DNA from: an uncultured Mollicutes bacterium
GTDB lineage: Bacteria; Bacillota_I; Bacilli_A; RF39; UBA660
Assembly: GCA_947652375.1 (NCBI GenBank)
Contig: CANTCS010000004.1
Coordinates: forward strand, 542-64,541
Reading direction: 5' to 3'
DNA: 64,000 nt
Of the stretch, positions 18,510 to 34,328 are shown in pieces (the first letter of the stretch is position 1; each line of letters opens with the position of its first letter). A program made the translations under genes and the position numbers. The notes below the pieces were generated by a model that did no database searches, was not told where the DNA came from, and saw nothing but the letters and a program-made list of their open reading frames with translations.

Positions 18510-20111
18510 ATGGAGAGAAAATTAAAAATAGTTAGTTGTTTAGTTTTTTTCTTGTTTTTATTAATTAATTGTCCACTAAATGTAGAAGCAATAAATATTA
18601 CAACAAATAATGAAACTTATTCAGGTGATTCTTCATATAAAAAAGTAACAAATCATGGAAATTTTAAAATTTATACTAATACAAATAGTCATGATACAAC
18701 AAATTTTAGACTATATAAAATAGTAAATATATATTATAATTCTGTTAGAGATGAAATTAAGTATGGCTTTACAACTAATTTCCAAACATTCTTAAATAGT
18801 AGTGATTGTCCAAGTACTTTTAGAGCAATGACTATTGAAATATTTATGTCTTTAAATAAAGGAACCGCTATACGAGATCAATTAGATGGAAATAATTATG
18901 TAGTAAGTGGAGGAAATTTAACATCAAATGATTTTGCAAGACTAATGAGTGCATATGCAGGTTATGTAAGAGAGCACACAATTAGTACTGATGGATATCT
19001 TTCAATGTATTCTCTTTCGACATCTGGTCGACCATATAAAATGTCAGATTATGTTGAAGCGGGGACACATTTAGCTTTGCCAGATGATAGCATAGGAGCT
19101 GATTATGGAGTATCAGTCTTTGGAGTTATGGTAGATAGTGTAAGACTAGAAAAGAATGGCTCTACTTGGGAATTGAAAGATGCTGAAATTTTAGCTAAAA
19201 CAACTACTACATCTTTATCACATCAAATAGCTGCTAACTATCAAGGACCATTTAATTTGTCAGCAGACGTGGGCTATGGAGGTAGTCCAGAAGGTAAAAT
19301 TTTATTTGCAATCCCAACATATCCAGCCAATAGTTTAGTCCCTCCAATGATAACGGTAACAATTGATAAAGTTCGAAATGAAAGTGGTTGGCTTACTTTT
19401 GTTACTTCTGGATTTTCAATATCTGATATGTCATCAACTGGAGGAACAATTAAATATAATAATCAAACTGTTGGAACAGCTGTTAGAAATAGTAGTACAG
19501 GACAAGTTAAAGTAAAGTTTACAAGTATAAGTCTTATTCCTAAAACAATAGAATTTAAATATCATGCTGAGTCTCTAAACTCAATTAATAGTGTAATGGG
19601 AGCTAACAAAAGAAATGCGAAATTAGAGTTTAGTGATCCTTATACATCTTCTGAAACAGTAGCAATAAATACAGCAGAGAGTAGAGATGCAATATTTTAT
19701 ACATATGCCTTACAAATAACAGGAACAAATGGAGCGGTATTTAAAATTACAGATAGCTCAGGAGTATCTAAGGGAACAATAACAATTGGAAGTGATGGAA
19801 TTGGTGAATTAAAAGGCTTAAAATCTGGAACTTATACAGTAACTCAAACAAAAGCCCCAGCTGGTTATGCATTAATAAGTGATTCTCAAACAGTAAAAGT
19901 AGGAACTGGAGGAACACAAGTATCAGGAAAAACAGGATATTATAATATTACAATGAGAAATAGTATTCTTTTAGTCCTTCCATTTACTGGAAGTAAAGGA
20001 ACAATTATATTTTCAATTATAGGAAGTTTACTAATTATAGTTTCAATAATATTTTTAATAAAATATAAAAAGAAGAAAAATAAAGTAAATCAAAATACAA
20101 CTACTAACTAG
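18510..20111 (+). CDS. LPxTG-anchored surface protein, adhesin/pilin-like, paralogue B
   Basis: Same architecture as 7926-9515. The 3' ~130 nt are near-identical to paralogue A. LPFTGS motif. ATG 18510 follows AAGGAG (the ORF track starts at GTG 18498). Confidence 0.85.
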   Translation: MERKLKIVSCLVFFLFLLINCPLNVEAINITTNNETYSGDSSYKKVTNHGNFKIYTNTNSHDTTNFRLYKIVNIYYNSVRDEIKYGFTTNFQTFLNSSDCPSTFRAMTIEIFMSLNKGTAIRDQLDGNNYVVSGGNLTSNDFARLMSAYAGYVREHTISTDGYLSMYSLSTSGRPYKMSDYVEAGTHLALPDDSIGADYGVSVFGVMVDSVRLEKNGSTWELKDAEILAKTTTTSLSHQIAANYQGPFNLSADVGYGGSPEGKILFAIPTYPANSLVPPMITVTIDKVRNESGWLTFVTSGFSISDMSSTGGTIKYNNQTVGTAVRNSSTGQVKVKFTSISLIPKTIEFKYHAESLNSINSVMGANKRNAKLEFSDPYTSSETVAINTAESRDAIFYTYALQITGTNGAVFKITDSSGVSKGTITIGSDGIGELKGLKSGTYTVTQTKAPAGYALISDSQTVKVGTGGTQVSGKTGYYNITMRNSILLVLPFTGSKGTIIFSIIGSLLIIVSIIFLIKYKKKKNKVNQNTTTN

Positions 20112-20163
20112 TTGTATTTTGATTTTATTATTATCTAACTAAAATATTATTAAAATTTTTGCT

Positions 20164-20198
20164 AAAAAAATTATAGAAAATTTCTATAATTTTTTTTA
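20164..20198 (+). terminator. Bidirectional-looking terminator after adhesin B
   Basis: A-run, ATTATAGA stem, TCTATAAT stem, then T-run. Confidence 0.6.
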
Positions 20199-20361
20199 TT
20201 TTATGCTATAATTAAATAAAAGAATATAAAACTATTAAAAATAAAGAATAGAGAGGGAAGTATAATATGAAAATTTATTTATAATAATCTTTGAAAAAAA
20301 GAGAACGAAACAACTAGTATTTTAACATTTTAAAACAATTATAAAAAGGAAGTTGATAATA

Positions 20362-21225
20362 ATGAGTAGAATAAAAAATAAGACTACAAAAAATATAATC
20401 TCGATATTAATGCTAACAATTGGAACAATAATAGCTTCATTAGCATTAGAGTGTTTTTTAATTCCGAATACTATTTTAGATGGGGGTATTACTGGTATAT
20501 CTATAATAATTTCTAAATTATCAAAAATACCTTTAGCATTTTTGGTATTAGTTTTAAATATTCCTTTCATATTTATAGGTTTTAAAAATCTAGGAAAAAG
20601 TTTTCTTTTAAGAACTTTATATTCTATGATTTGTTTTTCTTTTTTTCTATCATTTTTTGGTAACTTTAAACCGTTTACAGAAGAAATTCTATTAGCAACA
20701 GTTTTCGGTGGAGCTTTATTAGGTTCAGGAGTTGGTATAGTTATTCATTTTGGAGGATGCGTTGATGGTACTGAAAGTGTAGCAATTGTAATAAGTAAAA
20801 GAACAAATTTAAGCGTTGGTCAAATAGTTTTGATGTTCAATTTAATAATTTATACAACAGCAGGTTTTATATTTGGCTTTGATAGAGCAATGTATTCACT
20901 ATTGACCTATCTAATAACATTCAAAGTAATAGATTTTGTATCAGAAGGGTTAGAGCAAGCTAAAGCTGCCTTAATAATAACAGCTAAAGGAACTTCACTA
21001 TCTAAAGAAATTTATGCAAAATTAGGAAGAACAACAACAACAATTAAAGGAAAAGGATTAATAAGCGGAGAAAAAGAAGTTTTATATTGTGTTTTAACTA
21101 GAATTGAAATATATGAATTAAAAAACTTGGTGGAAGAAATGGATGAAAGTGCTTTTATAACTATATTAGATGTTTCAGATATTATTGGAACTCATATAAA
21201 AAGTAATAACAAAAGAAAAATTTAG
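20362..21225 (+). CDS. YitT-family membrane protein (DUF2179 C-terminal domain)
   Basis: Five to six TM helices plus a C-terminal soluble domain typical of YitT. ATG 20362 lies 9 nt after AAAGGAAG. Confidence 0.8.
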   Translation: MSRIKNKTTKNIISILMLTIGTIIASLALECFLIPNTILDGGITGISIIISKLSKIPLAFLVLVLNIPFIFIGFKNLGKSFLLRTLYSMICFSFFLSFFGNFKPFTEEILLATVFGGALLGSGVGIVIHFGGCVDGTESVAIVISKRTNLSVGQIVLMFNLIIYTTAGFIFGFDRAMYSLLTYLITFKVIDFVSEGLEQAKAALIITAKGTSLSKEIYAKLGRTTTTIKGKGLISGEKEVLYCVLTRIEIYELKNLVEEMDESAFITILDVSDIIGTHIKSNNKRKI

Positions 21226-21419
21226 GAAACTAAGTTTTTTTATTTGCCTATAATTTTAATTTACTTATATATCATTTGAAGTCATCTCACTAGATTTTAG
21301 ATTTCTTTGTTTAATTCTCACAAAAATAAAGTATCAATTTTATAAATAAATAACTAAAATTAATAAATTTTGATTAATGTAAAAAAACTTAATTAATTTT
21401 TAATTTTTAAAAAAAACTT

Positions 21420-21467
21420 AAAAAAGTGTTGACATTTTAAAATGTTATTAATATAATGTTAATAACA
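21420..21467 (+). promoter_or_regulatory. Promoter (TTGACA-17-TATAAT) overlapped by a 23-bp near-palindrome: candidate NAD-regulon operator, copy 1
   Basis: TTGACA 21429-21434, TATAAT 21452-21457, palindrome GTTATTAATATAATGTTAATAAC 21444-21466. 45 of 48 nt identical to 29046-29093. Confidence 0.75.
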
Positions 21468-21538
21468 AGCGGGAAAACTTGTTAAAAAATTTAACTATAG
21501 TTATTAACAAAATATTAAAAAGAAGGGTGATGTTGAAA

Positions 21539-21946
21539 ATGGAATTAAATTTTACAAAAGAACAAATGATTTTAATACTAAAAGAATATTATAAAAATCA
21601 TTTTGATATTGAAGGAGAAATTGAAATAAAAGCTTATTCTTCTCAAGTTGGGTATGAAATGTATCCATCACTAGCTACAGTAGTAGAAATGAAGATAGTA
21701 GGTGATATGGATATTAATAATATGAAAACTAAAATAGAACAAAAAATTACAACCGATGATTTAGAAAATGCTTTTAGTTATATATTAAGTAGTAAAAATA
21801 TTGATGTCGAAAGTGTTAAACTTGACAAAGGTATAACATCTATAAGTATTGGTTATGGTTTAGGTGAAAAGAATGTAGAAACTGCTTACTTTAAAGGAGT
21901 GAAAGTTATTACGAAAAATAATAATAAAAATTTAGGAGGAATGTAA
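21539..21946 (+). CDS. Hypothetical protein, first gene of the pncA-pncB operon
   Basis: 135 aa from ATG 21539, 11 nt after AGAAGGG. No recognisable motif. The ORF track start 21479 runs back to just downstream of the operator (21444-21466), within the predicted leader. Confidence 0.6.
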   Translation: MELNFTKEQMILILKEYYKNHFDIEGEIEIKAYSSQVGYEMYPSLATVVEMKIVGDMDINNMKTKIEQKITTDDLENAFSYILSSKNIDVESVKLDKGITSISIGYGLGEKNVETAYFKGVKVITKNNNKNLGGM

Positions 21947-21947
21947 A

Positions 21948-22499
21948 ATGAAAATTAAAAATTTAAAAATGTATAAAGGAATGTTAATTGTTGTAGACAT
22001 GGTTAATGGGTTTGCAAAGAAAGGTGATTTAGCTGATCCTAAAATAGGAGATGTTGTTCCAAGACAAATAGAACTTATTAAAGAAGCAAAAGCAAATGGA
22101 TATTTAATAGTTTTTATTAAAGATACTCATAAGGAAGATTCAGTAGAGCATAAAAGATTTAATGGAAGTAAACATTGTGTTGAAAACTCAGGAGAAGAAT
22201 TAGTAATAGATGAATTAAAAGAATATGAAGATTTAGAAGATACAATTAGTATTCCAAAAAATTCAACAAGTTATATGGAAGCACCAGAATTTAGAGAATT
22301 AATAAGTGAAGCTACTAATATTGAAAAAGTTGATGTAGTTGGATGTTGTACAGATATATGTGTTGCTAATGGAACGATAGGACTTGCAAATTATTTTGAT
22401 CAATGGAATAGAAATGTAGAAATTAGAGTTCATGAAGATGCAATTGCAACATTTTTAGAAGGGATAGACAAAATTATGTTGATGCTGCTAAATTATTAA
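21948..22499 (+). CDS. pncA: Isochorismatase-family nicotinamidase (PncA-like), 3' end probably frameshifted
   Basis: Catalytic D (VVDMVNGF), K (FIKDTH) and C (GCCTDICV). A plausible native C-terminus (NYVDAAKLLMAQQGIKLVKKR*) lies in the -1 frame and ends at 22537. Confidence 0.8.
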   Translation: MKIKNLKMYKGMLIVVDMVNGFAKKGDLADPKIGDVVPRQIELIKEAKANGYLIVFIKDTHKEDSVEHKRFNGSKHCVENSGEELVIDELKEYEDLEDTISIPKNSTSYMEAPEFRELISEATNIEKVDVVGCCTDICVANGTIGLANYFDQWNRNVEIRVHEDAIATFLEGIDKIMLMLLNY

Positions 22500-22659
22500 T
22501 GGCTCAACAAGGAATTAAATTAGTAAAGAAGAGATAGTTTTTTTTAAAACTTTGATATTAATAAAATGATAATAAGAAAATAAAATAATTTATTTGATAT
22601 AAATATATTTTTATAAAAAATGATATTAATGAAATGATAAAAAGATAAAGGAGATTAAA

Positions 22660-24405
22660 ATGAATACAAAGAAATTAAAATTTTTAGAGAGAATATTAAA
22701 TAAATATAATTATAACGGAGTTTACTTTTGTTATAACAATGAGAAAGTTGAACCTGAAAATAATGAGGTAGTAATCAGTGTTTTAGATGACCATTATAGT
22801 GTATATGCAAATTCTTTAGATAACAAATTTAATGCTTATGATTTTAAAAAAGAGGAAATGGTTTTATGTTATGTTGCTTGTTTATTTGATAATGAGGATT
22901 TATATAATGAAATTATGAGTTTTCTTAATGATAAAGAAAATCAAACTTTAATGACAGATTTTTATGAATTAACAATGGCTCAAACTTACTTCAATGAAGG
23001 AAAGAAAGATGAAAAAGTATTTTTTGATATTTTCTTCCGTAAAAATCCTTTTGAAGGTGGTTATACAATGAGTGGAGGACTTGATGAAACAATTAAATAT
23101 ATTGAAAATCTACGTTTTTCTGATAGTGATATTAAATATTTAAGAAAATTAGGAAAGTTTAATGACGAATTTTTAAATTATCTTGCTGATTTAGAGTTTA
23201 GTGGAGATGTATATGGTGTTCCAGATGGAACTGCAATTTTTCCAAATGAGCCAGTGCTTACTGTAGAAACTGATATTATTACTGCTCAACTTTTAGAGAC
23301 TGCTTTACTTGCTAACTTTAATCATGGTTCTTTAGTAACAACAGCAGCAAAAAGAGTTACAAGTGAGGCAAATAATAATGGTAAACAAATTCCAGTTATG
23401 GAGTTTGGAGCACGTCGTGGACGTGGTGTTAATTCTGCAATCGAAGCAAGTAAGAATGCTTTTATTGGAGGCTGCTGTGGAACAAGTAATACTAAAGCAG
23501 GGAAATTATATGGAATTCCAGTACTTGGAACTATGGCACATTCTCTTGTAACAGAGAGTGAAAATGAATATGAAGCATTTTTAGGATATGCTAAAAGTAA
23601 TCCAGATAATTGTATTTTCCTAGTTGATACTTATGACACACTAAAAAGTGGTATTCCTAATGCTATTAGAGTTGCAAATGAATATTTAAAACCAAATGGA
23701 TTTAGTTTTAAAGGAATTAGAATTGATAGTGGAGATTTAGCTTATTTATCAAAAGAAGCAAGAAAAATGTTAGATGAGGCAGGTTATCCTGATGCAACAA
23801 TTTGCTTATCTAATGGTTTAAATGAATACAGTATCAGTGACTTATTAAAACAAGGTGCAGTAATTGATTCAATAGGAGCAGGTGATAATATTGCAGCTCC
23901 AAATGAAAGAGTTGGTGGAGTATATAAATTAGTAGCTGTAGAAAAAGATGGTGTTATAGAAGATAGAATTAAAGTAAGTGAAGATAGTATTAAAACTATC
24001 AATCCAGCAAGAAAAAGAGTTTATCGTTTCTATGACAAAGATACTGGTTATGCTTTAGGTGATGTTATTACATTAGCAGAAGAAAAAATTGCAGATAATC
24101 AATATACTCTTGTTCATCCAGTTGAAACATGGAAAAAAACTACACTTAAAAATTATAATGTTCGTCCATTATTAGAGCCAATTTTTAAAGATGGAAAATT
24201 AGTATACAAAGATCCATCTATAAAAGAAAAACAAACATATTGTCATCAAGAATATGAAAGTTTATATCCAGAAGTTACACGTATTTCTAAACCTAGTGAA
24301 TATTATGTAGATTTATCTAATAAATTAAGAGAATTAAAAAATGAACTTATTAAATTACATCAAGAAGAAGTTTTAGAAAAATCTTATCAAAAGATAAAAA
24401 AGTAG
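22660..24405 (+). CDS. pncB: Nicotinate phosphoribosyltransferase with a ~95 aa N-terminal extension
   Basis: The NAPRTase core starts at TLMTDFYELTMAQTYF (about residue 96). GTMAHS motif present. Confidence 0.92.
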   Translation: MNTKKLKFLERILNKYNYNGVYFCYNNEKVEPENNEVVISVLDDHYSVYANSLDNKFNAYDFKKEEMVLCYVACLFDNEDLYNEIMSFLNDKENQTLMTDFYELTMAQTYFNEGKKDEKVFFDIFFRKNPFEGGYTMSGGLDETIKYIENLRFSDSDIKYLRKLGKFNDEFLNYLADLEFSGDVYGVPDGTAIFPNEPVLTVETDIITAQLLETALLANFNHGSLVTTAAKRVTSEANNNGKQIPVMEFGARRGRGVNSAIEASKNAFIGGCCGTSNTKAGKLYGIPVLGTMAHSLVTESENEYEAFLGYAKSNPDNCIFLVDTYDTLKSGIPNAIRVANEYLKPNGFSFKGIRIDSGDLAYLSKEARKMLDEAGYPDATICLSNGLNEYSISDLLKQGAVIDSIGAGDNIAAPNERVGGVYKLVAVEKDGVIEDRIKVSEDSIKTINPARKRVYRFYDKDTGYALGDVITLAEEKIADNQYTLVHPVETWKKTTLKNYNVRPLLEPIFKDGKLVYKDPSIKEKQTYCHQEYESLYPEVTRISKPSEYYVDLSNKLRELKNELIKLHQEEVLEKSYQKIKK

Positions 24406-24421
24406 AGTTTGGTGAATTAGT

Positions 24422-25048
24422 ATGCGTAAAGAAAAATTGGAACAACTACATAATTATATTAATGAGTTGAAAACGGTACGTAGGACTCTTATAGAACCTG
24501 AATATATCAATATTGATGGTAAATTGCAAAGAAAAGAAGGTTTTATAAATGTTGAAAAATATATGGTGGAACTTGTTAACGGAATGAAAATACCACGAGA
24601 AAAGATTTTAAAAGGTGGAAAAAATAAAAGTGCAGCGGTTGTTATGCCAGTAACAAAAGATAACAATGTCGTTTTAGTTATTCAGTCAAGGAGCAGTACT
24701 CATGAATCAGTTTGTGTAGAGTTTCCGTCTGGTTATATTGAAGAAGGAGAAGACCCAGTTTATGGTGGAGCTAGAGAAGTTACAGAAGAAACTGGTTATA
24801 TTCCAGAAGAAATGGTCTTATTAGATAAATTCTATCAAGACCAATCTTGTGGAGTATGTGCCTATAATTACAATTATCTAGCTTTAGGGTGTCAAAAAAA
24901 ACAAAATCAACAATTAGATGAAAATGAAGCAATAAGATATTTAGAATGTACTATTGATGAAGTATTTGAATTGTTAGAAAAAGGATATATTACCGACATT
25001 CAAACAAAGTACACTCTAAATCTTGCTAAACAGTATATAAAGAGATAA
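24422..25048 (+). CDS. Nudix hydrolase, ADP-ribose pyrophosphatase-like
   Basis: Nudix box GYIEEGEDPVYGGAREVTEETGY. Confidence 0.85.
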   Translation: MRKEKLEQLHNYINELKTVRRTLIEPEYINIDGKLQRKEGFINVEKYMVELVNGMKIPREKILKGGKNKSAAVVMPVTKDNNVVLVIQSRSSTHESVCVEFPSGYIEEGEDPVYGGAREVTEETGYIPEEMVLLDKFYQDQSCGVCAYNYNYLALGCQKKQNQQLDENEAIRYLECTIDEVFELLEKGYITDIQTKYTLNLAKQYIKR

Positions 25049-25085
25049 TAAAAGAAAGAGTGTGTTATTATGAAAAAAAATTGGA

Positions 25086-26309
25086 ATGACTTTTCCAAGA
25101 CAAGATACATCCCTAGGTTTAGAACCGTCATTACTTACGGTTCTACCTGAAGGGGATAATGTAATTTATTCCATGGAAAACAAAGATTTTAATGATGAAG
25201 AAGTAGAAAATTATGCTTGTTCAGTATATATTACTGGAATGAATGAATTTAAAGAATGGGCTAAGAAGCATGATCGCGAAAAAATTATTGTAGGTGGATA
25301 TGAACCAACGATTAATCCAGAAGAATTTGTACCATATGCTAAAAAAGTGATGGTAGGTCCTTGTGATGATTGGTATCAAAGCATTGCTCAAGAAGGAAAT
25401 ATTATCAAAGGAATAACTACTAATAAAAAAATTCCAAGATATGATTTGTATGACATAAAAAATAATCAACAAATAATTCCTGATAAAAAAATTGATGATA
25501 TTTGTACATCTATAGATACATCTCAAGGATGTCCCTTTAAATGTGATTTTTGTTGTAGTCCTTTAATGTGTGATAAACTAATGTCAAAACCTCTTGATTT
25601 GATAAAAAAAGAAGTTGCATATTTAAAGCAATTTAATCCTAAATTTGTTTTTATTCGTGATGAAAATTTTCCTCTTCAAAAAGATTGGAGGGAACGTCTT
25701 CAAGCAATTAATGAAATGGGAGCTAAGATATATCTTTTTGCATCAGCTAATCTTTTGAATGAAGAAACGGTTAAATTTATGAAAGAAAATAATGTTTATA
25801 TGGTATGCTTAGGTTTAGAAGATATTACAGTTGATTATACTAAAAATAAAACTTTAAATGAAGCTTGTAGATTACTTCATGATAATGATATTATGGTTTA
25901 TTTATCTTTCATCGTTAATCCCTTAAAAGTAAGAACCCAAGCAGAAAGTGATGAATTCTATTCTAAATTATTAGATAGATTTATTGAACTTCGTCCTGAA
26001 ATGGTTTGTGGAAACTTTTTAATGCCTTTTAGAGGTACTAAAATTTGGGATGATTATAAAGAATTAGTTTCTGAAGATGATTATGATTTTTATAATTCTA
26101 AAAGTGCTTTTTTAGAAAAAAATCAAGAAAATCGACAACGTATGGAATATGAAATGTTTTATTATCAATGGTTATATTATAATTCAGAATTTTATCAAGA
26201 AAATATTAGAAAGTTTCAAATAAAAGATACTCTACATTTAAGATTTCTTGAATTGGAAGAACAATTTGAAGATTCAAAAAATCTTAAGGTTTATAAAAAG
26301 TTAATATAA
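25086..26309 (+). CDS. Radical SAM protein with an N-terminal B12-binding-like domain
   Basis: CPFKCDFC (CX3CX2C). IVGGYEPTINPEEF is typical of the class B N-terminal domain. Confidence 0.8.
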   Translation: MTFPRQDTSLGLEPSLLTVLPEGDNVIYSMENKDFNDEEVENYACSVYITGMNEFKEWAKKHDREKIIVGGYEPTINPEEFVPYAKKVMVGPCDDWYQSIAQEGNIIKGITTNKKIPRYDLYDIKNNQQIIPDKKIDDICTSIDTSQGCPFKCDFCCSPLMCDKLMSKPLDLIKKEVAYLKQFNPKFVFIRDENFPLQKDWRERLQAINEMGAKIYLFASANLLNEETVKFMKENNVYMVCLGLEDITVDYTKNKTLNEACRLLHDNDIMVYLSFIVNPLKVRTQAESDEFYSKLLDRFIELRPEMVCGNFLMPFRGTKIWDDYKELVSEDDYDFYNSKSAFLEKNQENRQRMEYEMFYYQWLYYNSEFYQENIRKFQIKDTLHLRFLELEEQFEDSKNLKVYKKLI

Positions 26310-26464
26310 TTTAGAAAAACATAATAAAAAAATATAATGATGAGATTTATTTATTGAAACTATAATGAATAATTGTAAATTTTATAAAGAAAGTGATATT
26401 ATATAAAAGTGGATAATGTTGAGTTTTAATTTAATAAAGTTAAAAATGAAAAGGAGAGATTTAT

Positions 26465-28396
26465 ATGAGAGAATATGGATTCATTAGAGTAGGAGCTATA
26501 GTTAATCGCTTAGCTTTAGCTAATCCAATAGAAAATGCAAAAGAAATTATAAAGATGATTAAAGATGCAACAAAAAAAGGAGTAGGGATTGTTACTACTC
26601 CAGAATTAAGTCTAACAGGTTATACTTGTCAGGATTTATTTTTACAAGACTGTTTGATTGATGAGGCATATGAAGCTTTAAAAACAATCTTAAAGGAAAC
26701 TGAGAAAATTAATATTATTAGTATTTTAGGTATGCCCATTAGAGTAGATAATCAACTGTTTAATTGTGGAGTAGTTATAAGTAAAGGAAAGATTTTAGGA
26801 ATTGTTCCAAAAACTTATGTACCAAATTATTCTGAATTTTATGAAAAAAGATGGTTTCAATCTAGTAGTAATCTAATTAGTAATGAAATAAATATTCTAG
26901 ATCAAATAGTTCCAATTGGTACTAATATCCTTTTTAAAGATAAAGAAGTTTGTTTTGGAATAGAAATTTGTGAAGATTTATGGTGTGTAAATCCACCAAG
27001 TAATGCTCATACCTTACATGGAGCAAATATCATCTTTAATTTAAGTAGTAGTAATGAAGTTATTGGTAAATATGAGTATCGAAAAAATTTAGTTTCTATG
27101 CAATCTGCTAAAACTATTAGTGCTTATGTATATGCATCAAGTGGAATTATGGAATCAACATCTGATATTTTATTTAGTGGAGCAAGTATGATTTATGAAA
27201 GTGGTTCACTTTTATGTGAAAATGAAAGGTTTAGTTTAGAAAGTAATTTGATTTATACAGATATTGATGTTTCAAAAATAAATAATGATCGTAATAAAAA
27301 TATAAGTTATATGGGTGTAGTTGGAAATGAGAAATATCGTTACATAGATATAGAAGTAATTGATACAAAAAAAGAATTATCAAGAACTTTTCCAGAGTAT
27401 CCGTTTGTTCCAAAAACAGAAGTAAAAAGAGATGAAAGATGTAGAGAAATTTTTACTATTCAAGCATCTGCTCTTGCTAGAAGACTTTTAACATTAGGAA
27501 AACCAAAATGTGTAATTGGAATTTCAGGAGGACTAGATTCAACATTAGCTTTCTTAGTTATAGTTGAAGCGTTTAAAAAAATTGGGATGGATATGAAAAA
27601 TATTATTGGAGTTACGATGCCAGGTTTTGGTACAACAGGAAGAACATATAATAATTCTTGTGAGTTTGTTCGTGAGTATGGAGCAACTCTAAAAGAAATA
27701 GATATCAAAGCTGCTTGTATTCAACATATGAAAGATATTGGACTTGATGAAAATGATAGAACAATTGCTTATGAAAATACTCAAGCACGTGAGAGAACTC
27801 AAATTTTAATGGATATTGCGAATATGGAAGGTGGCCTTGTTATCGGAACAGGTGACTTATCAGAATTAGCATTAGGTTGGTGTACTTATAACGGAGACCA
27901 TATGAGTATGTATTCAGTAAATACATCTATTCCTAAAACACTTGTTAGGTATTTAGTAAGATGGGTTGCTGATACAGCTGATATAAAAAAGAAAGAAATA
28001 ATTTATGATATTTTGGATACACCAATTTCTCCAGAATTATTACCTCCTGACGAAGCAGGAAATATATTACAAGAAACAGAATCAAGTATTGGTCCTTATG
28101 TTTTACATGACTTTTTCCTATATCATTTCTTAAGATATGGAGCAACTCCGAAGAAAATTTATTATCTTGCTAAAAATACTTTTAAAGAAAGTTTTAGAAA
28201 TACAGAAATATTAAAATGGTTAGAAGTATTTATAAAAAGATTTTTTACTCAACAGTTTAAACGTAATTGTGTACCAGATGGTGTGAAAGTAGGAAGTATT
28301 TCTCTATCTCCAAGAGGAGATCTTAGAATGCCAAGTGATGCTAGTTATGCTATTTGGTTAAAAGAAATAGAAGAATTAAAGGAACTATCAAAATAG
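26465..28396 (+). CDS. nadE: Glutamine-dependent NAD+ synthetase
   Basis: N-terminal CN-hydrolase domain plus a C-terminal NAD synthase domain with the SGGLDS PP-loop. Confidence 0.95.
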   Translation: MREYGFIRVGAIVNRLALANPIENAKEIIKMIKDATKKGVGIVTTPELSLTGYTCQDLFLQDCLIDEAYEALKTILKETEKINIISILGMPIRVDNQLFNCGVVISKGKILGIVPKTYVPNYSEFYEKRWFQSSSNLISNEINILDQIVPIGTNILFKDKEVCFGIEICEDLWCVNPPSNAHTLHGANIIFNLSSSNEVIGKYEYRKNLVSMQSAKTISAYVYASSGIMESTSDILFSGASMIYESGSLLCENERFSLESNLIYTDIDVSKINNDRNKNISYMGVVGNEKYRYIDIEVIDTKKELSRTFPEYPFVPKTEVKRDERCREIFTIQASALARRLLTLGKPKCVIGISGGLDSTLAFLVIVEAFKKIGMDMKNIIGVTMPGFGTTGRTYNNSCEFVREYGATLKEIDIKAACIQHMKDIGLDENDRTIAYENTQARERTQILMDIANMEGGLVIGTGDLSELALGWCTYNGDHMSMYSVNTSIPKTLVRYLVRWVADTADIKKKEIIYDILDTPISPELLPPDEAGNILQETESSIGPYVLHDFFLYHFLRYGATPKKIYYLAKNTFKESFRNTEILKWLEVFIKRFFTQQFKRNCVPDGVKVGSISLSPRGDLRMPSDASYAIWLKEIEELKELSK

Positions 28397-28542
28397 TTCT
28401 TTTTTTTATAAAAAAATCTACAAATTATTAAATTTTGATTAAATTATTATTATATGTAAGTCTTATATTTATTTAATTTTGAATAATTTGCGTTTAAAGA
28501 AAATACTTGCTAATATTCTATTAATAATGTTATAATGAATAT

Positions 28543-28655
28543 GTCAAGGAAACTTGCATAAAATAAAAAAGGAATACCTAGTTTTGAAGAGTTAGGTACT
28601 ATTCCAAAAAATAAATGTTCAAGTACCGACTTTAAACAGTTGATACTATTTTTAT
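28543..28655 (+). ncRNA. Predicted antisense RNA (type I antitoxin candidate), copy 1
   Basis: TTGCTA-18-TATAAT (28507-28536). The conserved 5' segment GAATATGTCAAGGAAACTTGCATAAAATAAAAAAGGA is shared with copy 2. Terminator AGTACCGACT/AGTTGATACT plus a U-run at 28622-28655, overlapping the 3' end of the toxin ORF. Confidence 0.4.
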
Positions 28656-28724
28656 TAAAATGATTAAAATCACAATAATAAGGAGAATTATGATAGTACA
28701 AAGATATTTCTCTGTTTTTTTCAT
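28632..28724 (-). CDS. Small hydrophobic peptide, type I toxin candidate (30 aa: MKKTEKYLCTIIILLIIVILIILIKIVSTV)
   Basis: GGAGGTG lies 6 nt before the ATG. Single TM peptide. The SD can pair with upstream CTCCTTT. Terminator with U-run downstream. A paralogous module is at 39296-39385. Confidence 0.6.
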   Translation of the reverse strand: MKKTEKYLCTIIILLIIVILIILIKIVSTV

Positions 28725-29045
28725 AATTTTCACCTCCTTTCACTTTTTAAAGTAAAGGAGAATAGTACCTAAACTAACTAAATATTCCTGAATTAATTAT
28801 ACCGAACATTTGTTTTTAATACAATAGCTTTATTATAGTTTGATAAATTATTGTAGAGTAGTAAAATTAATTTAAAACTATAATGAGGTATAGAAGAAAT
28901 ATATGATATCAAAATTTTTTTATATAAGGAATTATAACAATATTTATAAGAAATATTTTTAAAACTAGTTTATTTTTTATGGGACTTAACTTTAAGATTA
29001 TATAAATATTTTAGGTGTTTTGAAAGTTTTTATTTGGAAATATAT

Positions 29046-29093
29046 AAAAAAGTGTTGACATTTTATTATGTTATTAATATAATATTAATAACA
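29046..29093 (+). promoter_or_regulatory. Promoter (TTGACA-17-TATAAT) overlapped by a perfect 23-bp palindrome: candidate NAD-regulon operator, copy 2
   Basis: TTGACA 29055-29060, TATAAT 29078-29083, palindrome GTTATTAATATAATATTAATAAC 29070-29092. Confidence 0.75.
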
Positions 29094-29224
29094 CGACTGA
29101 TATTTTTTTTAAAATCAGATATTAACAAAATATTAATAAGAAGAATATTGTTAGTAATTAAATTGGTAAAATTGAAAGTTATAAATAAAAGTAAAAGAAA
29201 TAAAAAAGAGAGGATTATATTTTT

Positions 29225-30322
29225 ATGAATAGTAGAAAATTAAAGTTAATTGTTATGCCTAATTGTAAAAAGTTGGGTGAGAGTATTGATTATGAATTAA
29301 AAAGGATAAATAAAACTGATAATAGTTTTTTAGTGGATTTTAAACCAGATCGATTTGGTAATGGTGAAGGTAAGGTAAAAATTAATGAAAGTGTTAATAA
29401 TACAGATTTATATATATTAAGTGATGTTGGAAATTATGATATTAGTTATAACTATCATGGGAGAACTCATTACATGTCGCCTGATGAGCATTATGAAGAT
29501 ATTAAAAGATGTATTGCTGCAACTAGTGGTCATGCGTCTAAAATAAATGTTTTGATGCCACTACTTTATGAATCTCGTCAGCATAAAAGAAAAGGTAATG
29601 AATCGCTTGATTGTGCTATAGCATTACAAGAACTTGAACATATTGGAGTTAATAATATTATAACTTTTGATGCACATGATCCAAGTGTTTCTAATGCTAT
29701 ACCTCGTCTTCCTTTTGAAAATTTTTATCCAACACATAGAATATTAGAAGAATTGATTGATAATGAAGAGATAAAAGATTTGTTAGTAATTAGTCCAGAT
29801 ATGGGAGCTATGGAGAGAGCAAGATATTATGCTGATATGTTGGAAAGTGATGTCGGAGTTTTTTATAAAAGACGTGATTTATCAAAAGTTGTTAATGGTA
29901 AAAATCCAATAGTTGAGCATATGTATATGGGAGCAGATCCTAAGGGAAAAGATGTTATTATAGTAGATGATATGATAGCATCAGGTGGTTCAATTTTAGA
30001 AGTTGCTTCTAATTTACGAAAAAAAGGAGCAGACAAAATATTTTTAATAGCAACATTTGCATTATTTACAGAAGGAACTGAAAAATTTGTAGAAGCTTTT
30101 GATAAGGGGCTATTCAACAAATTATATTCAACTAATTTAAGTTATGTTCCAGAAAGTATTACAAATAAAAATTGGTATCAAGAAGTAGATTGTTCTAAGT
30201 ATATTGCAGAAATTATAAATACTCTTAATAAAAAAGAAGATATTGAAGGATTATGGAATGGTAAAGAAAAAGTAATTAAAAAAATAAAACAAAAAAAGAA
30301 ATTAGAATTTGAAAACAGTTAA
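29225..30322 (+). CDS. prs: Ribose-phosphate pyrophosphokinase (long PRPP synthetase paralogue)
   Basis: PRPP-binding loop VDDMIASGGS and N-terminal Prs domain motifs. 365 aa. Confidence 0.88.
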   Translation: MNSRKLKLIVMPNCKKLGESIDYELKRINKTDNSFLVDFKPDRFGNGEGKVKINESVNNTDLYILSDVGNYDISYNYHGRTHYMSPDEHYEDIKRCIAATSGHASKINVLMPLLYESRQHKRKGNESLDCAIALQELEHIGVNNIITFDAHDPSVSNAIPRLPFENFYPTHRILEELIDNEEIKDLLVISPDMGAMERARYYADMLESDVGVFYKRRDLSKVVNGKNPIVEHMYMGADPKGKDVIIVDDMIASGGSILEVASNLRKKGADKIFLIATFALFTEGTEKFVEAFDKGLFNKLYSTNLSYVPESITNKNWYQEVDCSKYIAEIINTLNKKEDIEGLWNGKEKVIKKIKQKKKLEFENS

Positions 30323-30339
30323 TAAGGAAAGTGATATTT

Positions 30340-30927
30340 ATGAAAATAGGTATTTTTGGAGGTAGTTTTAATCCTCCTCATAATATGCATATTAATATAG
30401 GTGAGGAATTAATTAAACAAAGTTATCTTGATAAAATTATCTTTGTTCCAACAGGAATAAAGTATAAATATAAGTCTAATTTGTTACCTAATGAAAATCG
30501 ATTTGATATGTTGAAAATACTTACTCAAAAAAATAAAAATTTTTCTGTTAGTAATTATGAATTTAGTGAGAATGTTGTATATACATGTGAAACACTTGAT
30601 TATTTTAAAAATAAATATTTAAATGATGAGATATATTTTATATGTGGTGCAGATAATTTGAGTTATATTGATAAATGGAAAAATGGAGAAGAAATATTAA
30701 AAAATTATAAAATTATTGTTATTTCTAGAAACACTGATAATTTAGAAAGTATTTTAAAAAAATATTCTAAGTATAATGATAATATTTTAGTTGCTAGAAT
30801 TCCTCCTTATGATTTATCATCAACTGAGATTAGAAAATTAATAAGTGATGGAGAATATCATTTATTAGATAAATATTTAGATTGTGATATAATAGATTAT
30901 ATAATTGAAAATAATTTATATATGTAA
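30340..30927 (+). CDS. nadD: Nicotinate-nucleotide adenylyltransferase
   Basis: GGSFNPPHNMH (HxGH-type) and SSTEIR (ISSTxxR) motifs. Confidence 0.93.
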   Translation: MKIGIFGGSFNPPHNMHINIGEELIKQSYLDKIIFVPTGIKYKYKSNLLPNENRFDMLKILTQKNKNFSVSNYEFSENVVYTCETLDYFKNKYLNDEIYFICGADNLSYIDKWKNGEEILKNYKIIVISRNTDNLESILKKYSKYNDNILVARIPPYDLSSTEIRKLISDGEYHLLDKYLDCDIIDYIIENNLYM

Positions 30928-30976
30928 ATTATAAAATGCTAAAAAATGTATATTCTAAAGATTGAGGAGAGATAAT

Positions 30977-31450
30977 ATGTTAAAAGAATTAGTAGAAAAA
31001 TTACTTGATTTAGGTAAAACTATTAGTACAATGGAGTCTTGTACAGGTGGTGGTGTTGCAAATGCAATTACTAATATAGCAGGGGCTAGTGAAGTTTTAA
31101 AATTTAGTGCAGTAACTTATTCTAATGAATTTAAAATTAAAATGGGAGTATCTAGTGAAGTAATTGATAAATATAGTGTTTATAGTATGGAAACAGCAGA
31201 AGAAATGAGTAAAAATATTAGTGCTTTTACAAATAGTGATTTTGGAGTTGGAATTACTGGAAAACTAAATTCAAGTGATAGTAGTAATCCAGAAGGAGAA
31301 AATGATATTGTATTTGTAAGTATATATGATAAAGAAAAAGATAAATACTATAATACTACTATTAAAGTTTTAGTACAAAGTCGTGAGAAAAATAAGGAAT
31401 TAATTATAACAAAGATTAATGAGTTAATTTTAGAGATATTAAATCAATAG
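30977..31450 (+). CDS. pncC: CinA C-terminal-domain protein / NMN amidohydrolase
   Basis: ESCTGG motif. About 157 aa stand-alone CinA_C domain. Confidence 0.85.
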   Translation: MLKELVEKLLDLGKTISTMESCTGGGVANAITNIAGASEVLKFSAVTYSNEFKIKMGVSSEVIDKYSVYSMETAEEMSKNISAFTNSDFGVGITGKLNSSDSSNPEGENDIVFVSIYDKEKDKYYNTTIKVLVQSREKNKELIITKINELILEILNQ

Positions 31451-31509
31451 ATGATTATTGAAAAAAATTAGGAGTATGTGTATAATTTATTTAGAAGTGA
31501 GGTGGTAGT

Positions 31510-32346
31510 ATGGAAAAATATCAAACAGAAGAGGAATTTCTAAGAGATTATAATTCCGATGAATTTGAAAAGCTATCGATGACTGCTGATATTTTAATAC
31601 TAAGTGTTTCGAATCAAGAGACAACTAATTATCGTAAAAATGCTCGTAAAATGATGAGTGTTTTATTAGTAAAAAGAGATGATTATCCTTATAAGGGTAA
31701 ATGGTGTTTACCAGGAGGTTTTTTAAATCCTAAGACAGAAACATTAGAAGAGTGTGCTAAAAAAGTATTGAAAAGAGAAACTAATTTATCAAATATTTAT
31801 TTGGAACAATTATATACATATGATTCTATTAACAGAGATCCACGTATGCGTGTTGTTTCTACTTCTTTTGTTGCTTTAGTTGATAAAGAAAAATTAACTG
31901 AAAAAGTTGAACATGCATCTTGGTTTGATATTGTTTTATATGAAGAAAAAAATAATGTTGTTCATTTAACACTTGATAATGGTTTTGATACGATTAGCTT
32001 AAGTATTAAAAAAGTTTTAAAAGAAAAAACAACTGATCGTTATCAATTTGTTACTAAAACAAATGATAATATTGCCTTTGATCATGATTTAGTTATTTTA
32101 AGTGGTTTGGAAAGAATTCGTAATAAAATAAATTATACTGATGTTGTCTTTAATATGATGCCTACATATTTTACACTTGGAGAACTTCAACAAGTTTATG
32201 AAGTAATACTTAATAAAAAATTATTAGATCCTGCTTTTCGTAGAATTATTGCTGATAAGGTAGAAAAAACTAATAAAATGAAAACAGGAGAAGGACATCG
32301 TCCATCATATTTATTTAAATATAAGAAAAATGAAAAAAATAAATAA
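31510..32346 (+). CDS. nrtR: NrtR-family Nudix-related transcriptional regulator
   Basis: Degenerate Nudix domain (GKWCLPGGF...KRETNL) fused to a C-terminal winged helix with the NrtR signature (FTLGELQQVYEVILNKKLLDPAFRRII). Confidence 0.85.
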   Translation: MEKYQTEEEFLRDYNSDEFEKLSMTADILILSVSNQETTNYRKNARKMMSVLLVKRDDYPYKGKWCLPGGFLNPKTETLEECAKKVLKRETNLSNIYLEQLYTYDSINRDPRMRVVSTSFVALVDKEKLTEKVEHASWFDIVLYEEKNNVVHLTLDNGFDTISLSIKKVLKEKTTDRYQFVTKTNDNIAFDHDLVILSGLERIRNKINYTDVVFNMMPTYFTLGELQQVYEVILNKKLLDPAFRRIIADKVEKTNKMKTGEGHRPSYLFKYKKNEKNK

Positions 32347-33130
32347 AGTAAAATTATTTATAAATAATAATATAAAATCTCGTAAGGTTGCTAAAGAACT
32401 GGTTGAAGTACTTAAAAAAAAGAAATTTCAAATAGTTGATGATGATTTTGATTTAGGCATAGCCATAGGTGGAGATGGCTCATTTTTAAGAATGATAAAG
32501 GATTGTAATTTTAATAATGAAATTTTTTATGTTGGGGTTAATGCAGGAACATTAGGTTTTGCTCAAGATATTAGTGTTGATGAAATAGGGGATTTTGTAG
32601 CTAATCTATCTAGGGGTGAATATACTTATGAAGAAATAGGTGTGCAAGAGGTTCTAATTGTAACTAATACTTCTACTTCAAAAATGTTTTCTTTAAATGA
32701 GATTGTTATTAGAGATGAAGCTTTAAATACAACTAGTTTAGATATTTTAGTAGATGATATATTTTTAGAGCATTATACAGGAGATGGTATTTTAATAGCA
32801 ACTTCTTTTGGTTCAACTGCATATAATCTTAGTTTTGGTGGTAGTTTTGTTTATAATACTTTTAATACTTTACAAATTACTCCAATTGCTCCTTTAAATA
32901 ATAAAAGTTATCATGGTTTAACAAATTCTGTTATAATTCCATCAAATAAAATTATTAAACTTGTTCCTAAAAGAAATAATGGGAATTTGATTGTTACAAT
33001 TGATGGGGATAATAATTTTTATAATAATGTTACAAAAATAGAGACATCAATGAGGACGCAAACAATAAAAATAATTAGAAAAAAAGATTATAATTTTATT
33101 AGAAAGATTAATGAGAAATTTTTAAAGTAG
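32330..33130 (+). CDS. nadK: NAD kinase
   Basis: GGDGSFL motif and TAYNLS motif. Confidence 0.93.
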   Translation: MKKINKVKLFINNNIKSRKVAKELVEVLKKKKFQIVDDDFDLGIAIGGDGSFLRMIKDCNFNNEIFYVGVNAGTLGFAQDISVDEIGDFVANLSRGEYTYEEIGVQEVLIVTNTSTSKMFSLNEIVIRDEALNTTSLDILVDDIFLEHYTGDGILIATSFGSTAYNLSFGGSFVYNTFNTLQITPIAPLNNKSYHGLTNSVIIPSNKIIKLVPKRNNGNLIVTIDGDNNFYNNVTKIETSMRTQTIKIIRKKDYNFIRKINEKFLK

Positions 33131-33139
33131 GCATTTATT

Positions 33140-33682
33140 ATGGAAAATAAGATAATTAAAGGATATAAAGCATTTAATTATAATATGACAAATAGAATTG
33201 GTCTTACATTCAAAGAAGGGAAAATTTATAGGGTAGTTGGTAAATTAAAGTTTGGTAATGATGGAAATGGTTATCATTTTTGTAAAAATTTAGAGGATAC
33301 TCTTCGTTATTTTTCTGCTCGAGATCAAGAAATCAAACTTTGTTGTGTTACTAGTTATGAAGATGTAGTAGAATATTATGATGATTATTATGGATATTAT
33401 AATATGTATGCAGCAAGGTGTATTTCAATTGATAAAATATTAAGTCGTGAAGAAATTATCAATAAAATGTTAAGAGAGAATTCTTTTTCTGTTCAACGAT
33501 TTTGTAGTTTATTTAAACTTACTAAGGAAGAAATGGAAACTTTTAAAAAGCATTTTGATTCTGATATTGCAGTTTTAAGATGTATTCAGTTTTATCAAGA
33601 AAATGATTTGGATGTTTATGCAATAAGAAAAGAGGAAAAAGTTAAAACAAAAAGTTTAAAGAGCATCAATTATGATAATTGA
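33140..33682 (+). CDS. Hypothetical protein
   Basis: 180 aa. N-terminal KGYKAFN...GNGYHFC segment. Family not confidently recognised. Confidence 0.55.
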   Translation: MENKIIKGYKAFNYNMTNRIGLTFKEGKIYRVVGKLKFGNDGNGYHFCKNLEDTLRYFSARDQEIKLCCVTSYEDVVEYYDDYYGYYNMYAARCISIDKILSREEIINKMLRENSFSVQRFCSLFKLTKEEMETFKKHFDSDIAVLRCIQFYQENDLDVYAIRKEEKVKTKSLKSINYDN

Positions 33683-33749
33683 ATGCTTTTTTATTGTTAA
33701 TTTAGTATTTCTTTGATATATTTATTTTAATAATTATTACGAGGTGTTT

Positions 33750-34328
33750 ATGGATACGTATTTTTATAAAATTATTAGACCGTTTATTAGTTTTTTATTT
33801 AAAATATTATTTCGACCTGTTGTTTTGGGAATTGAAAATATACCATCTAGTGGAGGAGTAGTTTTAGCTGGTAATCATACTAAATGGCTAGATCCTATAG
33901 CGTTAATTGCTATTAATAAGAGACAAGTTCATTTTTTATGTAAAGATGAATTGTTTCATGGAATTACAAAGCCAATAGTAAAGGCAATGGGATGTATTTC
34001 TGTAAATAGAAAGATTCATGATAAAGAAGCTCTTAGTTTAGGTTACAAAACTTTAGAAAAAAATAATGTGATTGGAATTTTTCCAGAAGGAACAATTAAT
34101 AGAAGTAGTGATATTATTATGCCTTTTAAAATAGGAGCAGTGAAAATGGTTAGTAAAACTAATTCTTATTTAGTTCCTTTTACTATTACTGGTAAATATA
34201 AATTATTTAAAAAGAGTATTAAAATAGAGTTTTTAAAACCTTATAAAATTAAAGATAGTAAAACTTTAGATGATGAAAATAAAAAGTTAATGCATATAAT
34301 TAGTAAAAATCTTCAAAAAAGTATTTAA
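33750..34328 (+). CDS. plsC: 1-acyl-sn-glycerol-3-phosphate acyltransferase
   Basis: NHTKWLD (HX4D) and FPEGT motifs. Confidence 0.88.
   Translation: MDTYFYKIIRPFISFLFKILFRPVVLGIENIPSSGGVVLAGNHTKWLDPIALIAINKRQVHFLCKDELFHGITKPIVKAMGCISVNRKIHDKEALSLGYKTLEKNNVIGIFPEGTINRSSDIIMPFKIGAVKMVSKTNSYLVPFTITGKYKLFKKSIKIEFLKPYKIKDSKTLDDENKKLMHIISKNLQKSI

Follow-up and report, generated by a model that had tools for sequence, protein, structure and literature searches.

In the window (the whole 64-kb stretch of DNA that was analysed), the two operons of a cluster of NAD genes are preceded by promoters of nearly the same sequence, each with a palindrome lying over its -10 box, which raises the question of what this palindrome does there and which protein, if any, recognises it. 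By direct reading, segments 21420-21467 and 29046-29093 are identical at 45 of 48 nt, the three differences being AA/TT at 21440-41 and G/A at 21458. The TTGACA, 17-bp spacer and TATAAT described for both segments by the initial annotation are present, and the palindrome is, as it had also stated, centred on the -10 box, perfectly in copy 2 and with one arm mismatch in copy 1. The two promoters were the sole 12/12 matches found in a promoter scan of 20000-34000. They are listed here together with a third, promoter-like site and the presumed regulator gene:

21429..21457, + strand: promoter 1, with TTGACA (21429-21434), a 17-bp spacer and TATAAT (21452-21457); 12/12 to consensus
29055..29083, + strand: promoter 2, with TTGACA (29055-29060), a 17-bp spacer and TATAAT (29078-29083); 12/12 to consensus
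31458..31486, + strand: promoter-like site before nrtR, TTGAAA-17-TATAAT; 11/12, directly 5′ of nrtR
31510..32346, + strand: nrtR, encoding a Nudix-like domain and an NrtR winged-helix domain; presumed repressor

Promoter 1 lies upstream of hyp-pncA-pncB-nudix-rSAM-nadE and promoter 2 upstream of prs-nadD-pncC-nrtR-nadK. These gene calls, also made initially, were borne out by Pfam and NCBIfam for all genes of both operons except nadK (32330-33130), the call for which rests on the initial annotation and on conserved synteny in tblastn maps. In operon 1, the matches describe an isochorismatase-type PncA, PncB, a Nudix protein, a B12-type radical SAM protein and a glutamine-dependent NadE, following a 135-aa protein (the first gene after the box) for which no Pfam or NCBIfam family was found. 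Those of operon 2 are Prs, NadD, CinA/PncC and NrtR (NUDIX and NrtR_WHD).

The NrtR protein has the architecture of its family, an N-terminal Nudix fold and a C-terminal NrtR-type winged helix-turn-helix, with Pfam placing NUDIX at residues 48-141 and NrtR_WHD (PF21906) at residues 213-270 (58.8 bits, cut-off 27). Against PDB, its best sequence match is BtAraR (5bs6, 2e-25), followed by full-length similarity to 2fml over residues 8-272 (E = 6e-22) and by SoNrtR (3gz5, 3e-19). The best NrtR match in NCBIfam was NF050029 (“ADPR responsive transcriptional repressor”), with 143 bits being below its cut-off of 400; judged by architecture, the protein is thus a member of the family and not an equivalog of the characterised clade. 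Its Nudix signature appears degenerate by eye (AKKVLKRETNL against the expected REUxEExGU), as in non-catalytic NrtRs.

The palindrome, hereafter the box, has the form GTTATTAA-N7-TTAATAAC over 23 bp and a half-site consensus of GTTATTAAYAW. A position weight matrix (PWM) was built from 40 seed sites. At up to three mismatches, the 23-mer occurs at only two places in 64 kb, these being the O1 boxes of the two promoters (0.01 expected). Aligning the two intergenic regions revealed a second conserved block, O2, which is a degenerate copy of O1. The O2 box of each leader, the two boxes before pncB and the 5′ hairpin discussed below had all been missed initially. The sites, none of which is assigned a strand, are as follows:

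21444..21466, unstranded: box O1 of copy 1, GTTATTAATATAATGTTAATAAC; one arm mismatch (T9/G15), 33.9 bits
21500..21522, unstranded: box O2 of copy 1, GTTATTAACAAAATATTAAAAAG; 23.6 bits, 56 bp from O1 and directly adjoining the 135-aa gene's ribosome-binding site
22554..22576, unstranded: box in the pncA-pncB spacer, GATATTAATAAAATGATAATAAG; 25.8 bits
22622..22644, unstranded: weak box adjoining the pncB ribosome-binding site, 15.1 bits; may be non-functional
29070..29092, unstranded: box O1 of copy 2, GTTATTAATATAATATTAATAAC; perfect 11+1+11 palindrome, 30.5 bits
29118..29140, unstranded: box O2 of copy 2, GATATTAACAAAATATTAATAAG; 25.4 bits, 48 bp from O1

Parts of these sequences are shared with other signals. 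The left arm of O1 is fixed as T because this is the first base of TATAAT, and the last base of O2 is G because the box there runs into the Shine-Dalgarno sequence. No PWM match of at least 12 bits was found at the nrtR promoter-like site (31458-31486), which could provide basal, unregulated synthesis of the repressor. A conserved A/T element (CTTTTTAAAAAAATGTTAAAAAG) is also present at 21403-21425, approximately 41 bp upstream of O1, with orthologous elements in other genomes (e.g., L005 at 640, L010 at 2475 and 7309, and L011 at 2220). It is weakly box-like (12-18 bits); its position is exactly that of an UP element, and it was classed as UP-like rather than as a genuine box.

With the NrtR protein as query, 28 loci were retrieved from species-representative genomes. 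The closest (L001), from an uncultured mouse-gut Bacilli metagenome-assembled genome (MAG), has an NrtR 99% identical to that of the window; in a further group (L002-L024), comprising MAGs labelled as uncultured Bacilli, “Erysipelotrichaceae” and Mycoplasmatota, identity is 57-80%, and in the most distant (L025-L028), mostly labelled Clostridium, it is 34-40%. Tblastn maps show that the NAD supercluster is syntenic, with rearrangements, across the loci with NrtR identity of at least 57%. In the window and 26 non-redundant loci (approximately 500 kb), all PWM matches of at least 12 bits lie in NAD-cluster intergenic regions and none elsewhere, the downstream gene being hyp, pncA, pncB, prs, nadD or nrtR. 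Boxes orthologous to that at 22554-22576 are located 12-22 nt before pncB in L005, L006, L010, L011, and L017. The NrtR-bearing loci L003, L004, L012, and L023 have no box and their operon start lies off the contig. The PWM scan found no box in the distant Clostridium-type loci. Among 24 strong orthologous boxes, a -35 hexamer (at least 5/6) stands at exactly 17 bp, and the box therefore always embeds the -10 hexamer.

Exact matches to GWTATTAAYAWAATRTTAATAAS were then sought in public collections. Metagenomes yielded at least 142 matches on at least 120 stretches. Among the 142 matches listed, 104 are directly upstream of NAD genes (pncA 84, hyp 9, prs 6, nadD 3, nadK 1, nadE 1) and 36 are on loci where no NAD gene was recognised. 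On our reading, 19 of these 36 possess the full architecture, meaning either a -35 at 17 bp together with a hairpin and a second box, or a box abutting a ribosome-binding site. Most of these 19 stand before NAD-linked genes, and the downstream proteins that could be identified are a 164-aa cytidylyltransferase-like protein, a 183-aa P-loop kinase and radical SAM proteins of 291 and 224 aa, alongside unknown proteins. The remaining 17, bare matches within coding sequence or in surroundings of higher GC, appear unrelated. No match was found among the 2.9 million contigs of a viral collection. As the metagenome matches cluster before NAD genes and the viral contigs give none, the box is not a general promoter feature; with approximately 88% of the listed metagenome matches in regulon context, it is a very specific tag. 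Occurrence at many unrelated promoters, which the initial annotation had named as speaking against an operator, was seen neither in the window, nor in 27 related loci, the metagenome loci (at least 120) or the viral contigs. In all, across over 20 species and over 100 metagenome contigs, the box is confined to promoters and leaders of the NAD cluster.

As a side observation, the exact 23-mer GTTATTAACAAAATGTTAATAAC is found on six contigs without NAD genes (L046 at 1336, L048 at 185, L070 at 481, L072 at 1488, L118 at 3029, and L148 at 7911). These have mostly a G+C of 0.44-0.54, that of L046 and L048 being 0.31, and in these latter two further inverted repeats lie alongside. This looks like an unrelated element sharing the sequence by chance.

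The simplest account of the twin 48-mers would be that they are just a recently duplicated strong promoter, the palindrome having no regulatory role. The similarity of the two copies goes beyond what function would demand, as 16 of the 18 positions outside the hexamers and box are identical, against a between-genome mean of 10.7; same-genome promoter pairs in other genomes agree at 7-13 such positions. However, the palindrome, including arm positions that are dispensable for the promoter, persists at orthologous sites in genomes whose NrtR is as little as 57% identical, as well as in the metagenome contigs (more than 100), and it is also present outside the -35/-10 context, at the O2 and pncB sites. 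A palindrome without regulatory role has, in our estimation, next to no probability. Duplication as such is another matter. The 135-aa gene heads the pncA operon in the window (21539-21946) and the prs operon in L007 (4431-4811), L010 (7392-7754), and L011 (7249-7644), and it is not present in the long prs leader of the window. Together with the identity at free positions, this suggests a recent duplication of the two control regions of this genome, or recombination between them. The prs leader (29141-29224) is approximately 85 nt longer than that of copy 1 and a spurious ORF runs through it and terminates in an ATGA where prs starts; this leader may be a remnant left by loss or relocation of the 135-aa gene.

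Turning to the binding protein, the 23-bp palindrome is predicted, with good confidence, to be the DNA operator of the NrtR encoded at 31510-32346, as the initial annotation had proposed. This reading is supported by the confinement of the box, its co-occurrence with nrtR, the correspondence between box and DNA-binding domain, and the geometry of the palindrome. In keeping with NrtR operators, the box is located in NAD-operon promoters and co-localises with nrtR across genomes, and its 23 bp (a perfect palindrome in copy 2) falls within their size of 21-23 bp, which suits a dimer footprint of approximately 25 bp. Among the listed metagenome loci that carry a box and extend at least 7 kb downstream of it, nrtR lies in the cluster at 14 of 18, the other four being truncated or split. 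The winged-helix region (FTLGELQQVYEVILNKKLLDPAFRRII...GHRPS) is nearly invariant in box-positive genomes and clearly different in box-negative ones.

The closest precedent is the NrtR operator of Mycobacterium smegmatis, a 23-bp palindrome (GTTTTCGA-N7-TCGAAAAC) demonstrated by EMSA and SPR (PMC6800001). The box shares with it the 23-bp length, the 8-N7-8 geometry, an identical outer GTT...AAC and a position in an NAD-gene promoter adjoining nrtR, the M. smegmatis regulator being an autorepressor. The two differ in the inner half-site, which is TCGA in M. smegmatis and TTAA in the box, and in the genes concerned, these being the de novo nadABC genes there and salvage, PRPP and universal steps here, where the box is predicted (PMC6800001). 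Most NrtR boxes are 21-bp palindromes, with a GT-N7-AC core in 12 of 18 groups and dissimilar boxes in the other six (Rodionov et al., 2008; PMC2330246). In the box, each of the 40 seed sites has AA-N7-TT at the corresponding positions, and this core is consequently missing; the departure from GT-N7-AC, a caveat raised initially, is therefore real.

The NrtR regulons of Firmicutes and gamma-proteobacteria also include pncA, pncB, nadD, nadE and prs, and have sites before pncA and pncB as well as tandem sites (PMC2330246). The layout in Clostridium acetobutylicum, for example, is #nrtR-pncA-#pncB-nadD-nadE, and tandem sites in Shewanella oneidensis give two shifted complexes, with ADP-ribose as the anti-repressor (PMC2330246). 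Unlike the boxes of those regulons, that described here measures 23 bp, has an interior made up of A/T and includes the -10 hexamer, and the regulon is larger, adding nadK, pncC, the Nudix protein, the radical SAM protein and the 135-aa protein. Bacteroides thetaiotaomicron AraR (PDB 5bs6, 5dd4), also of the NrtR family, has tandem semi-palindromic sites; its structure with DNA shows a dimer covering approximately 25 bp, and two dimers bind where such sites are separated by 3 or 42 nt (PMC4666351). However, the effector of AraR is L-arabinose, its regulon is that of arabinose use and its box sequence is different (PMC4666351).

The missing GT-N7-AC core could also mean that the box is the operator of another transcription factor encoded elsewhere, such as NiaR or an unknown repressor, with NrtR binding otherwise or not at all; it should be mentioned here that the regulator and box evidence from the organism's own genome covers the 64-kb window. 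NiaR (YrxA) sites of Firmicutes do serve in the repression of NAD genes (in some species also of pncAB) and likewise lie over the -10, but they are 22-bp inverted repeats with a TGT-N4-ACA core and their regulator has HTH and 3H domains (PMC2330245). The box has no symmetric TGT/ACA core of this kind, and no NiaR gene was seen at the locus. Furthermore, nrtR is the sole regulator gene to have remained in the cluster despite its many rearrangements, the winged helix tracks the presence of the box, and the box geometry is that of a validated NrtR operator. A different factor is accordingly considered quite improbable. Taken with NrtR as its binding protein, the box is very probably a lineage-specific, all-A/T variant of the NrtR operator in uncultured gut Bacilli, and the regulon one of an ordinary kind.

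The leaders downstream of O1 have a modular structure. In addition to O2, each of the two possesses a hairpin:

21464..21483, + strand: 5′-terminal leader hairpin of copy 1, AACAAG-cgggaaaa-CTTGTT, starting at the predicted +1; seen in the RNA fold
29097..29118, + strand: weak leader hairpin of copy 2, CTGAT-N12-ATCAG, displaced relative to copy 1; read from the sequence

In a direct search for hairpins, 18 of 21 orthologous leaders proved to have one with a perfect stem of 5-9 bp that starts within 0-2 nt of the predicted +1. Stem length averaged 5.6 bp, as compared with 3.8 ± 0.5 for shuffled leaders and a highest value of 5.29 among 500 shuffles; the copy 2 hairpin was not picked up by this 5′-proximal search. 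Paired changes in the stem are apparent across leaders (ACAAGT/ACTTGT, ACAGAT/ATCTGT, ACAAAT/ATTTGT, ACAAGA/TCTTGT). RNAalifold, applied to a MAFFT alignment of the leaders in which the variable loops are unaligned, gave no structure. The spacing from box to box is conserved at 54-57 bp among leaders, being 48 bp in copy 2 of the window, and a T-run lies 9-15 nt ahead of each downstream box. Where boxes occur in triple arrays, the covarying hairpin is present again after the middle box. At three promoters, O1 is followed directly by the ribosome-binding site, indicating that O1 alone can be the whole control region.

Transcription of the cluster was examined in metatranscriptome data, which consist of assembled contigs and not reads, making transcript starts approximate. 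In run X9, from a strain approximately 97% identical, a 4.7-kb contig starts at 21493, some 30 nt past the predicted +1 of promoter 1, with zero depth over the 590 nt upstream, and continues unbroken across the pncA-pncB spacer. An RNA contig for prs starts at 29206, with no depth at 28726-29009. These contigs agree with promoter 1 and with co-transcription, and O2 falls within the transcribed part of the leader. The X9 contig also skips 46 nt just inside pncA (21975-22020), not a multiple of three, which could be strain variation, a frameshifted pncA of that strain or an assembly artefact.

Given that O2 is transcribed, keeps a constant distance to the ribosome-binding site and is in nearly all cases found in a single orientation, and that the 5′ hairpin covaries, the leader elements (hairpin, T-run and O2) might instead work as RNA, riboswitch-like or by binding a protein, with the resemblance of O2 to O1 being secondary. 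We regard this as very improbable. An Rfam search of 20000-34000 returned no relevant match at E ≤ 1, NAD+ riboswitches included. The folding of the leaders does not surpass that of shuffles (z = -1.4, +0.3, +0.3), and the RNA of O2 is without structure. Changes in the box do not compensate between its arms, O1 has the same sequence as O2 yet lies mostly upstream of +1, and overlap with TATAAT in O1 and with the Shine-Dalgarno G in O2 accounts for the bias in orientation. The three promoters with O1 alone likewise argue against an RNA element.

On the operator reading, the extra boxes are read as additional operators or roadblocks. Stem-loops at the 5′ terminus can stabilise mRNA in Firmicutes, and the leader hairpin is read as probably a structure of this kind. 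A general function of hairpin and T-run as intrinsic terminator was rejected: a T-run stands directly 3′ of the stem in only about 5 of 18 hairpins by our reading, and the promoter/terminator scan called none. O2-type boxes, with no -35 and no TG extension, were judged unlikely to be full promoters. There is also the thought, in our view rather unlikely, that the box-hairpin-T-run unit, with its period of 54-57 bp and two or three copies per leader, is more than a stack of operators. In one variant, attenuation by roadblock, NrtR at the downstream box would stall polymerase on the T-run after the hairpin, and the weak hairpin would become a conditional terminator. In the other, that of tandem repressible promoters, every box, all of them containing a TAWAAT -10 hexamer, would itself be a weak promoter giving a hairpin-capped transcript.

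With NrtR as the repressor, and with the binding protein, the effector and the direction of regulation being what we infer, the regulon may operate as follows. An NrtR dimer on O1 would cover the -10 hexamer, located inside the box, and the start site, blocking RNA polymerase at both promoters. Further dimers on O2 and on the box of the pncA-pncB spacer would add occupancy or act as roadblocks. Cooperativity between O1 and O2 is not obvious, as 54-57 bp (approximately 5.3 helical turns) puts the dimers off one face of the DNA. ADP-ribose is a product of NAD cleavage, and by analogy with characterised NrtR proteins it would release the repressor, whereupon NAD salvage, PRPP synthesis, NAD synthesis and phosphorylation would be turned on together. 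Being a gene of the second operon, nrtR would also come under its own control, and it possibly has a separate promoter that lacks a box.

The box also draws attention to genes with no established place in such a regulon. Radical SAM enzymes of three sizes are found behind the same promoter and box architecture in different genomes, namely at 25086-26309 in the window, as a 291-aa ORF some 73-75 nt after the box in L030, L112, and L119, and as a 224-aa ORF in L128. To our knowledge, no radical SAM step in NAD salvage has been described. In L055, L089, and L135, the same promoter and box precede the 164-aa cytidylyltransferase-like ORF, the GGKFMPLHKGH of which represents the GxFxPxHxGH motif of NMN adenylyltransferase type. 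The 183-aa P-loop kinase ORF follows them in L049 and shows weak similarity to AAA_28 (E = 0.002, under the Pfam cut-off), which we take to be the family of the NadR ribosylnicotinamide kinase domain. Both ORFs probably belong to the regulon as additional members serving nicotinamide riboside salvage.

Of interest here are the all-A/T box with its embedded -10, the modular arrays and the regulon's uncharacterised members. The variant extends the set of NrtR boxes described so far, a gain for regulon databases and for work relating recognition-helix residues to box bases. The candidates tagged by the box (radical SAM, 135-aa, NMNAT-like and kinase-like proteins) may act in NAD or ADP-ribose metabolism. 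For this widespread, uncultured lineage of small-genome gut Bacilli, which apparently relies on salvage, the predicted operator offers a testable regulon model of NAD supply.
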